Assembly: GCA_027451825.1 (NCBI GenBank)
Contig: DAIDHZ010000001.1
Location: 96,745 to 160,744 of the forward strand
DNA length: 64,000 nt
Direction of reading: 5' to 3'
From: Chlamydiota bacterium
GTDB taxonomy: Bacteria > Chlamydiota > Chlamydiia > Chlamydiales > SM23-39
Each line of letters starts with the position of its first letter. Within the stretch, counting starts at the first letter, position 1. Position numbers and translations under genes: made by a program. The notes under the pieces are model-generated. The model did not search any database. It was given only the letters and a program-made list of their open reading frames with translations, and was not told the origin of the DNA. Below, one piece after another: positions 14,326 to 15,850 of the stretch.

Positions 14326-14418
14326 TTGCGGGGCCGGCGGCCCCTCTGGCTTGAACGTCAACAACAACAACATTGACAACGACAATGTTGGGGTGGGTGT
14401 GGCGCTTCCTTCGGAAAT
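14326..14418 (+). repeat. DGR template repeat (TR)
   Basis: 93 bp, identical to the reverse complement of 15949..16041 except at 12 TR adenines. It contains six AAC codons (reads ...GLNVNNNNIDNDNVGVGVALPSE). Confidence 0.9.
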
Positions 14419-14448
14419 CCTGTTATTTTCCCTGCTGAGTCTTACAAC

Positions 14449-14811
14449 TCAGTGGGGGACGGACTTAATCCAGCCGCCAACCATTTTTCCAATCTCTTGT
14501 ATCAATGCCTGAATCATAAGATATTGTTGATTATCAATCGTTCGAGTATCCTTTGATAATCGAATCAGCACTTTCAATAAATCAAGTTTATCGCTGATCC
14601 TATAAAGACAATCGAGCCGTTCCTCTCCTTTTCGATGACCGGTTTCAATTAAAACTTCTAAAAGAGCGAGTGTGGTATTCTCGCATTTTTGCCAAAGCGT
14701 ATATCGTTGAAGTTTCGGAATCGTTGGCTGGTACTTATGAAGCAATGTATAAAGATCGTAGATTTTATGGAAAATCGGAATATCTAAAACAGATCGGACT
14801 TGAGTTGTCAT
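14449..14811 (-). CDS. avd: DGR accessory variability determinant (Avd, four-helix-bundle family)
   Basis: 120 aa, predicted all-helical. The C-terminal EIGKMVGGWIKS resembles the EVGRILGSWI of the Bordetella phage Avd. Size and position next to the RT and TR fit an Avd. Confidence 0.8.
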   Translation of the reverse strand: MTTQVRSVLDIPIFHKIYDLYTLLHKYQPTIPKLQRYTLWQKCENTTLALLEVLIETGHRKGEERLDCLYRISDKLDLLKVLIRLSKDTRTIDNQQYLMIQALIQEIGKMVGGWIKSVPH

Positions 14812-15850
14812 GAAAGTAGCTCGATTTCTCTTTGCAAAAATGACTTCTTTGCATCAACTTTTTCAAAGTTGGGATCAGTTTAAACGAAAAAAGCGTAAAA
14901 GGGAAGACGTTCAATATTTTGAGAGGCATTTAGAAGACAATATTTTTCAACTACAACACGACTTAGCCACCCTTCAATACAAACACGCCTCTTATCACCA
15001 ATTTTACGTTACCGATCCCAAACAAAGACACATCAGTAAAGCTTCTGTCAGAGATCGGCTCGTACATCAATTAGTGTACAGCATTTTGACAGAGGAGTTA
15101 GATAGAAAATTCATTTTCCATTCTCTCTCGTGTCGTTTAAGAAAAGGAACTCACGTCGGAGTTACACAACTACAGAAAATGATTCAAAAAATCAGCACTA
15201 ACGGAAAATTGCCTTGTTTTGCATTAAAAATGGATATCCGAAGATTTTTCGATACAGTGAACCACAAAATCCTTAAGGTCCTTCTTCGAAAAAATATTCA
15301 GGATAATCAAGCTCTGAAAATTATCGACATGATCATCGATAGTTTTAAAATCAAAGAAACTCCGGAAGGAGCCGTGGGAATCCCTTTAGGAAATGTGACC
15401 TCTCAATTTTTTGCCAACTTATACCTTCATGAACTAGATGATTTCGTGAAACAAAATCTCAGAGAAAAATACTATTTAAGGTATTGCGATGACTTCATTA
15501 TTTTGTCTAATGACGAAATGCACCTAAGATATTTGATCTTAACCATTCAAGAATTTCTACAGACCCAACTTCAATTAGAGCTTCATCCAAAAAAACTGAT
15601 GATTAGAAAATTAACTCAAGGAATCGACTTTGTCGGTTCTATTTTGTTCGAAAAATACGTCATAACGAGAACTCGAACAAAGAAACGGATGAAACATCGA
15701 TTAAAGGAAGCATATGAAAACTATTTAATAGGAAAAATCGATGCCACGTCAATGGATCAAAAACTCCAATCTTATTTAGGAATTTTATCTCACGCAAATC
15801 AATATACGCTATCCACCGCCTTAAAAAATGCATACTGGGTTCGAAAGTGA
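14810..15850 (+). CDS. DGR-type reverse transcriptase
   Basis: RT motifs are present, including IPLGNVTSQFFANLYL (the DGR-diagnostic [I/L/V]GxxxSQ) and the catalytic RYCDDFIIL (YxDD). Its ~340-aa size is typical. The alternative start at 14840 (MTSLHQLF...) may be the true one. Confidence 0.9.
   Translation: MKVARFLFAKMTSLHQLFQSWDQFKRKKRKREDVQYFERHLEDNIFQLQHDLATLQYKHASYHQFYVTDPKQRHISKASVRDRLVHQLVYSILTEELDRKFIFHSLSCRLRKGTHVGVTQLQKMIQKISTNGKLPCFALKMDIRRFFDTVNHKILKVLLRKNIQDNQALKIIDMIIDSFKIKETPEGAVGIPLGNVTSQFFANLYLHELDDFVKQNLREKYYLRYCDDFIILSNDEMHLRYLILTIQEFLQTQLQLELHPKKLMIRKLTQGIDFVGSILFEKYVITRTRTKKRMKHRLKEAYENYLIGKIDATSMDQKLQSYLGILSHANQYTLSTALKNAYWVRK

Follow-up and report, generated by a model that had tools for sequence, protein, structure and literature searches.

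Introduction

Among previously described diversity-generating retroelements (DGRs), those closest to the one described here belong to the Candidate Phyla Radiation (CPR). According to Wu et al. (2018; PMC5758913), 90% of CPR DGRs have the architecture B3, written as 'TR-(avd)-RT', where TR is the template repeat, RT the reverse transcriptase, and the parentheses mark the reverse strand. The same survey lists 48 layout variants and states that some DGRs need at least two transcription units. We analysed a DGR of this type in a 64,000-nucleotide stretch of DNA (the window) from a member of the Chlamydiota (GenBank assembly GCA_027451825.1, contig DAIDHZ010000001.1, positions 96,745 to 160,744 of the forward strand). 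Its TR and RT lie on the plus strand, while avd and the target gene, which carries the variable repeat (VR), lie on the minus strand.

The best-studied comparison is the DGR of Bordetella phage BPP-1 (mtd-avd-TR-brt, architecture B1), which has the same four parts, shares adenine-specific mutagenesis, and encodes an RT (bRT) collinear with that of the window. It differs in that all of its parts lie on one strand, avd stands upstream of the TR, and a non-coding spacer of 140 nt separates TR and brt. In the phage ribonucleoprotein, the first element past the TR is Sp3-33, an 11-bp stem-loop that is held by all five Avd protomers and needed for complementary DNA (cDNA) synthesis, and comparable stem-loops closely following the TR are reported for 207 of 278 Avd-containing DGRs, those of the CPR included (bioRxiv 10.1101/2023.10.23.563531). 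The element that follows the stem-loop in the phage RNA pairs with the end of the TR and primes from Sp A56.

Another split layout, found in the 'inverted' DGRs of Shewanella, Vibrio and Photobacterium, likewise points to a need for at least two transcription units (Schillinger et al., 2012; PMC3521204). Like the window DGR, these elements have parts on both strands. However, their RT stands alone on one strand, with TR, VR and target together on the other, whereas in the window the TR stays on the RT strand and it is avd and the target that are reversed.

Results

A DGR of B3 architecture in the window

We read the parts of the locus from the sequence, an open reading frame (ORF) list, Pfam, NCBIfam and a scan for TR/VR repeats, and we give all positions in window coordinates. 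Relatives were taken as the best 80 genome matches to the window RT, with one genome per species scanned. These 80 loci comprise a chlamydial clade (approximately 47-88% local RT identity, mostly 53-79%) and a Patescibacteria/CPR clade (43-49%); the former also takes in a few metagenome-assembled genomes of Verrucomicrobia, Bacteroidota, Amoebophilaceae and Alphaproteobacteria. We consider it probable, at roughly 80%, that the locus is an intact chromosomal DGR of B3 architecture in an uncultured chlamydia-like bacterium, and that its layout is inherited. Its unusual gene order is real, and the cassette contains what defines B3, namely a TR, a reverse-strand avd and an RT with no other accessory gene, making it a further member of this published architecture. 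Three details are specific to its clade: the exact overlap of the avd and RT starts in one CATG, a target gene convergent with and following the RT, and a template-RNA hairpin placed on the avd stop codon. The features of the locus are as follows.

14275-14311, plus strand: conserved block upstream of the TR (GCTTCCGGCTCTGGTG...GGATGGACATCGGCAC), from an alignment of 23 chlamydial-clade loci
14326-14416, plus strand: TR, 91 nt, rich in AAC codons, with 12 adenine mismatches against the VR
14413-14422, plus strand: GGAAATCCTG box at the 3' edge of the TR, near-invariant in the clade alignments
14430-14440 and 14447-14457 (arms) with loop 14441-14446, plus strand: RNA hairpin just 3' of the TR, from covariation and RNAalifold
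14459-14471, plus strand: ACGGACTTAATCC motif that follows the hairpin and is antisense to avd codons 114-118, from synonymous-site conservation
14449-14811, minus strand: avd, 120 aa, from Pfam, NCBIfam and homologue alignment
14809-14812, both strands: CATG common to the avd start (minus) and the RT start (plus), read directly
14810-15850, plus strand: DGR RT, 346 aa, from Pfam RVT_1 and its structural relative bRT
15869-15887, minus strand: GC-rich hairpin with a T run, terminator-like, downstream of the target gene and VR, from a pattern scan
15930-17081, minus strand: target gene, 383 aa, with the F-box at about 16932-17012 and the VR at 15951-16041

All ORFs of the cassette are intact. 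An earlier note on this DNA had read the order as TR(+), avd(-), RT(+), target(-), and re-reading the sequence returned the same order and positions throughout. The stretch from the TR end to the RT start, which that note put at about 390 nt, measured 393 nt, and the VR, which it placed on the strand opposite the TR about 100 nt past the RT stop, begins 100 nt past that stop.

The RT ORF matched Pfam RVT_1 and had 2150 homologues. Its best solved relative is the Bordetella phage DGR RT (8ub7_A, E=3e-33), which aligns over residues 5-342 and is collinear from residue 5. The DGR RT clade is defined by the motif [LIV]GxxxSQ, and the window RT carries LGNVTSQ at this position. Its scores against the models for group II introns, retrons and Drt stay below cut-off. 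The avd ORF matched the bAvd-like family PF22296 of Pfam (E=1.4e-17) and the NCBIfam model DivGenRetAVD (E=2.4e-22), in the latter case with 79.2 bits, just under the cut-off of 80. Its product aligns with 70 Avd homologues of the related loci; phmmer returned no match for it in the PDB.

The window holds a single TR and a single VR. The TR (14326-14416, plus) and the VR (15951-16041, minus) form a 91-nt repeat with 12 mismatches, all 12 of which fall at adenines of the plus-strand copy, a pattern that assigns the TR to the RT strand and the VR to the opposite one. The final 30 nt (GTTGGGGTGGGTGTGGCGCTTCCTTCGGAA) are the same in both copies, and divergence starts right after them. Within the 383-aa target the VR corresponds to residues 347-377 approximately, and the TR read in the target frame gives NVNNNNIDNDN, its AAC codons being diversified at codon positions 1 and 2. 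A pattern scan identified the hairpin at 15869-15887 (8 pairs, 6 of them G-C, then AAATTTTTTT) as the GC-rich hairpin closest to the VR, 64 nt beyond it. That all parts are intact and no non-adenine differences exist lends indirect support, at the level of sequence, to ongoing diversification of the VR.

Two further observations concern the repeats. The AAC-rich core of the TR (14368-14390) contains an 8-bp palindrome (CAACATTG…CAATGTTG), followed on the minus strand by TTGTTGTTG, which scores as terminator-like for avd transcripts entering the TR. In several sister loci (L008, L012, L016, L017 and L022) at least two VR-bearing targets accompany a single TR; the L012 copies of the VR lie at 7158-7240 and 8432-8484, and some of the VR-bearing targets of L017 and L022 lie beyond the far side of the cassette.

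The reverse orientation of avd across the RT lineage

We set aside seven of the 80 loci as uninformative because upstream DNA was missing or the RT was truncated. In all 73 informative loci the RT is directly preceded by an Avd homologue in reverse orientation (69 found by ORF search and four by tblastn). TR/VR pairs in the relatives were located with a custom diagonal maximum-segment scan. In the 62 loci with such a pair the TR lies on the RT strand, and its end is usually no more than about 40 nt from the avd stop, the maximum being about 105 nt (L071); this position is alike in the chlamydial and CPR clades. The full order TR(+)-avd(-)-RT(+)-target(-) was found in approximately 20 chlamydial-clade loci, with the VR about 85-260 nt past the RT stop. 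The RT's kinship to the B3-carrying CPR lineage was judged by match identity, and all judgeable loci among the best 80 have the B3 core. From these comparisons, the reverse avd is best taken as the ancestral state of the entire RT lineage, to which most CPR DGRs belong.

These data bear on whether the inversion of avd might be a recent local rearrangement or an assembly error, two options that the earlier note had kept in view. An ISNCY insertion sequence does adjoin the cassette (about 17172-18804), but we found no support for either option. The same arrangement recurs in every informative locus, in independent assemblies and in different phyla, the CATG junction and the reading-frame relation described below are conserved, and the ORFs are undamaged. 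Comparison with homologous DGRs thus excludes a recent rearrangement, recurrence across independent assemblies excludes an artefact, and we give this explanation virtually no weight. It also follows that "non-canonical", as the layout had been called, is correct in relation to the Bordetella phage prototype but does not describe an oddity of this locus, since the layout is that of its relatives and of published B3.

Compared with the B3 DGRs of the CPR, the window DGR has the same core order and strands, a TR near the avd stop with a hairpin directly after it, and avd and RT starts that lie close together. It differs in the placement of the target, which in the CPR elements precedes the TR, together with the VR, by about 400 nt and shares its strand, whereas in the window it is convergent and downstream of the RT. 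The CPR TRs are also longer (110-130 nt versus 91 nt), their avd-RT spacing is variable without a fixed frame, their hairpins resemble intrinsic terminators, and their hosts and target domains are different.

Start codons of avd and the RT in one CATG

The claim that the ATG codons of avd and the RT share a CATG was confirmed by sequence at 14809-14812. A second ATG is present in the RT at 14840. The first ATG (14810) is the true start, because residues 5-10 align with bRT residues 6-11, because the peptide MKxxxxLFEKM is conserved among homologues, and because homologue P0005 has Ile instead of the second Met; the head-to-head overlap is therefore genuine and no artefact of ORF calling.

In a junction alignment 26 of 28 chlamydial-clade loci retain the CATG; the two without it are L023, where the junction is deleted, and L030. 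In 22 loci an intact RT ORF begins at the common CATG, and its frame relative to avd is the correct one. The distance from Avd Tyr18 to RT Trp21 is 98, 101, 104, 107, 110 or 113 nt and equals 2 modulo 3 in 25 of 26 clade loci, whereas in the CPR clade the distance between the Avd and RT cores is 94-167 nt and obeys no frame rule. Since insertions and deletions occur only in multiples of three, there is no non-coding spacer in the chlamydial clade, and both genes are read up to the CATG. The exact overlap is a clade-specific refinement of a junction that is tight across the lineage. Back-to-back starts in one CATG would place each gene's ribosome-binding region within the other gene and the avd promoter within the RT. 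The earlier suggestion that the avd promoter lies beyond the RT start is, by this reasoning, right.

A template-RNA hairpin on the avd stop codon

Alignment of the clade revealed, in order, the near-invariant GGAAAUyCUG at the TR edge, a hairpin at 14430-14457, and the near-invariant ACGGACUUNAUCC. The stem of the hairpin is 11 bp long and starts 14 nt past the TR, and its 3' arm holds the avd stop codon (14449-14451) together with the last two avd codons. RNAalifold predicted 11 pairs, and compensatory double changes were found in 10 of them. Across the alignment 95.3% of hairpin cells are paired, compared with 83% in shuffles, and 39 cells carry double changes, compared with 10.9; none of 500 shuffles reached any of the observed measures, and control positions slid along the alignment paired at 39-57%. 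An exhaustive helix scan returned this hairpin as the only robust helix, the other candidates being G/U-rich and spurious. A search of Rfam gave no relevant match in 13000-17500.

The strand on which the hairpin acts can be read from its wobble pairs. On the plus strand its cells contain 41 G·U against 3 A·C, which indicates that selection on the fold acts in the TR-sense RNA rather than in the avd mRNA. Synonymous sites of avd provided a second line of evidence. Against a background of 47% identical codons among pairs with the same residue, Ser117 is encoded by the identical TCC in 100% of such pairs and Lys116 by AAG in 92%, and Pro119 and His120 are also raised. Together these codons correspond to the ACGGACUU motif and the hairpin arm. 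Apart from codons 116-120, raised synonymous conservation in avd was found only at codons 8-16. A plus-strand hairpin over the avd stop, followed by a motif conserved at synonymous sites, means that the TR-sense RNA runs antisense into avd, as the earlier note had proposed. Judged by conservation, the functional plus-strand RNA reaches at least about 55 nt past the TR, or about 20 nt into avd. A broader antisense constraint across the gene was considered and rejected, as synonymous conservation is at background except at the two ends.

The location and size of this hairpin match those given for the Avd-binding stem-loop (about 9-11 bp, just downstream of the TR; Handa et al. 2024 preprint), and here the stem is 11 bp, covarying and strand-specific. 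BPP-1 likewise has a stem-loop of about 11 bp immediately 3' of its TR. By analogy of position and size, the window hairpin is probably the equivalent of Sp3-33.

A possible priming duplex was also noted. AAAUCC (14415-14420) can pair with GGACUU (14461-14466), and positions complementary in the window stay paired in 21 of 22 loci via C-G, U·G and, once, a compensatory U-A. Because both motifs barely vary, the evidence is weak, and we regard this candidate as only a lead.

Upstream of the TR, outside the TR/VR homology, the block at 14275-14311 (…TTCYGGCTCTGGTG…GGATGGACATCGGCAC) is conserved in 23 chlamydial-clade loci. Its possible roles are a 5' part or flank of the template RNA, a binding site for protein, or a remnant of the coding sequence of a target.

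In the CPR loci (L034-L079), whose post-TR hairpins we inspected sequence by sequence, an A tract borders one side of the hairpin and a T tract the opposite side, and overlap with the avd stop is frequent. One element may serve there as both terminator and Avd-binding stem-loop.

Proposed mechanism and alternatives

We propose a plus-strand RNA that begins before about 14275, contains the TR, and extends to at least about 14471, crossing the hairpin on the avd stop codon and then the conserved ACGGACUUAAUCC motif. The hairpin would act as the Avd-binding stem-loop, by analogy with the Bordetella phage element, and the motif after it may pair with the TR end, allowing self-primed cDNA synthesis. 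The RT-Avd complex would then copy the TR with errors opposite adenines, and the resulting cDNA would replace the VR in the 3'-terminal part of the convergent F-box gene. In this packing, one stretch of DNA encodes the functional 3' flank of the template RNA on one strand and the 3' end of avd on the other. Avd binding, the priming site and the position of promoters are the parts of this scheme that we infer.

For an RNA that continues beyond this point, through avd into the RT, we see roughly even odds. A pattern scan found no terminator-like site on the plus strand between TR and RT. The contrary possibility is a set of three transcripts without read-through, in which a short template RNA ends at or just past the hairpin and the RT is expressed from a promoter inside avd; the hairpin would then be a terminator or processing site, alongside or instead of an Avd-binding site. 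The CPR hairpins, with their A-tract/GC-stem/T-tract form of a bidirectional intrinsic terminator, speak for such an arrangement, but the chlamydial-clade hairpin has no U tract on either side, and the conserved ACGGACUUAAUCC motif after it indicates that selection acts beyond the hairpin. The body of avd is without a conserved RNA feature or synonymous constraint, as a short RNA would lead one to expect, and DGRs with TR and RT on different strands demonstrate that a joint transcript is not required (PMC3521204, PMC5758913). Moreover, the raised avd codons 8-16 lie 20-46 nt upstream of the RT start and fit RT expression signals inside avd. However, the only promoter-like site within avd (14531-14560) is specific to the window and not conserved in relatives. 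Taken together, we place three separate transcripts a little short of an even chance. On the other side of the junction, RT codons 16-40 have raised synonymous conservation (0.60-0.65 versus 0.45), which fits avd expression signals but could also be explained by AAA/GAA codon bias, and we treat it as suggestive only.

It might also be supposed that the hairpin belongs to the minus-strand avd mRNA, as its 3' end, a stabiliser or a terminator, and has nothing to do with the template RNA. The hairpin does overlap the avd stop, its reverse complement would form a hairpin too, and a shared terminator is common between convergent genes, the CPR relatives being one example. However, the 41 G·U cells of the plus strand become A·C mismatches on the minus strand while only 3 cells behave in reverse, and no U tract follows the hairpin on the minus strand. 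We therefore regard this explanation as very unlikely.

Several points weigh against the mechanism that we propose, in which a plus-strand RNA folds the hairpin for Avd and primes its own copying. In the Bordetella element 140 nt of RNA beyond the TR are required, part of which forms a duplex with sequence on the upstream side of the TR, whereas the downstream flank in the window, which overlaps avd in antisense, is conserved over only about 55 nt; either this lineage uses a shorter flank or other elements escape detection. Beyond approximately 14471, in the remaining 340 nt or so of avd, we found no conserved RNA structure and no synonymous constraint. In BPP-1 an upstream avd segment pairs with the spacer, but a corresponding upstream-downstream duplex is unsupported in the window: the pairings between the upstream block and the downstream flank that a single-sequence fold suggested (UGGA:UCCA, ACAGG:CCUGU and GCGG:CCGC) were rejected for want of covariation, 218-282 of 500 shuffles doing as well. 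The resemblance of the CPR hairpin to a bidirectional intrinsic terminator would favour a short, separately terminated template RNA in that clade. Neither the pattern scan nor the relatives' alignments yielded a conserved promoter of sigma-70 type for any of the three units; we infer promoters, RNA ends and read-through from sequence. Finally, structure modelling did not resolve the fold of the VR-bearing domain.

Target proteins of the chlamydial clade

The target ORF (15930-17081, minus; 383 aa) has an N-terminal F-box, supported by motif and fold and predicted to be of the Skp1-binding type, and a C-terminal VR. We viewed the target ORFs of the window and of L001, L003, L005, L015, L017, L019, L021, L022, L026 and L027. 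By eye, the chlamydial-clade targets share a C-terminal VR-bearing domain of about 200 aa that has no Pfam match. Fused to it are an F-box (in the window and at least six loci), U-box/RING together with TPR (L005, L017, L022), a PARP catalytic domain (L022), or NACHT with HEAT (L026). Our literature search found no paper linking DGRs to F-box, U-box or PARP-type effectors.

Neighbouring elements

The ISNCY-family insertion sequence occupies 17172-18804, with its transposase at 17255-18535 (NCBIfam E=2e-132). Its terminal repeat GAAATGTCCCCTTT occurs in two copies at the left end and in one inverted copy at the right end. Only about 90 nt separate the element from the start codon of the downstream F-box target, which puts it in the likely promoter region of that gene. 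On the other side of the cassette, 13798-13979 is a 182-nt element of nested inverted repeats with outer arms of 29 nt that are 97% complementary, present as a single copy in the window. It folds as one long hairpin (-88 kcal/mol, z=-10.9) and lies directly after the stop of the ORF at 13085-13795, about 350 nt upstream of the TR. It could be an element resembling a miniature inverted-repeat transposable element (MITE) or a large structured RNA.

Discussion

The layout alone is of little surprise, because it is B3 and hence no anomaly. What it adds concerns distribution: B3 has been described as nearly confined to the CPR, and the present comparison reveals a well-populated sister clade in Chlamydiota and a few intracellular or host-associated lineages, with a fixed sub-layout of its own, in which the target follows the RT and converges with it, and with the exact CATG overlap. 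The covarying hairpin on the avd stop shows that a portion of the functional template RNA of B3 elements is encoded within avd, on the strand antisense to it. It provides a concrete, testable boundary for that RNA and is a natural example of the Avd-binding stem-loop that the phage structure had suggested.

To us the most interesting feature of the locus is the set of F-box, U-box and PARP-domain targets of its clade. We offer, tentatively and with the balance of odds somewhat against it, the proposal that this clade hypermutates the substrate-recognition end of F-box and U-box/RING adaptors and of PARP and NACHT-HEAT scaffolds, producing self-diversifying host-targeting effectors, and, jointly with this, that sense-antisense pairing at both ends of avd forms a possible switch. 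If this is true, the CATG starts and the overlap of the TR-side RNA with the avd 3' end would force sense-antisense pairing, and the supply of Avd would be coupled inversely to the expression of template RNA and RT. If the targets are secreted, directed hypermutation in these bacteria would be aimed at host proteins rather than at surface ligands.

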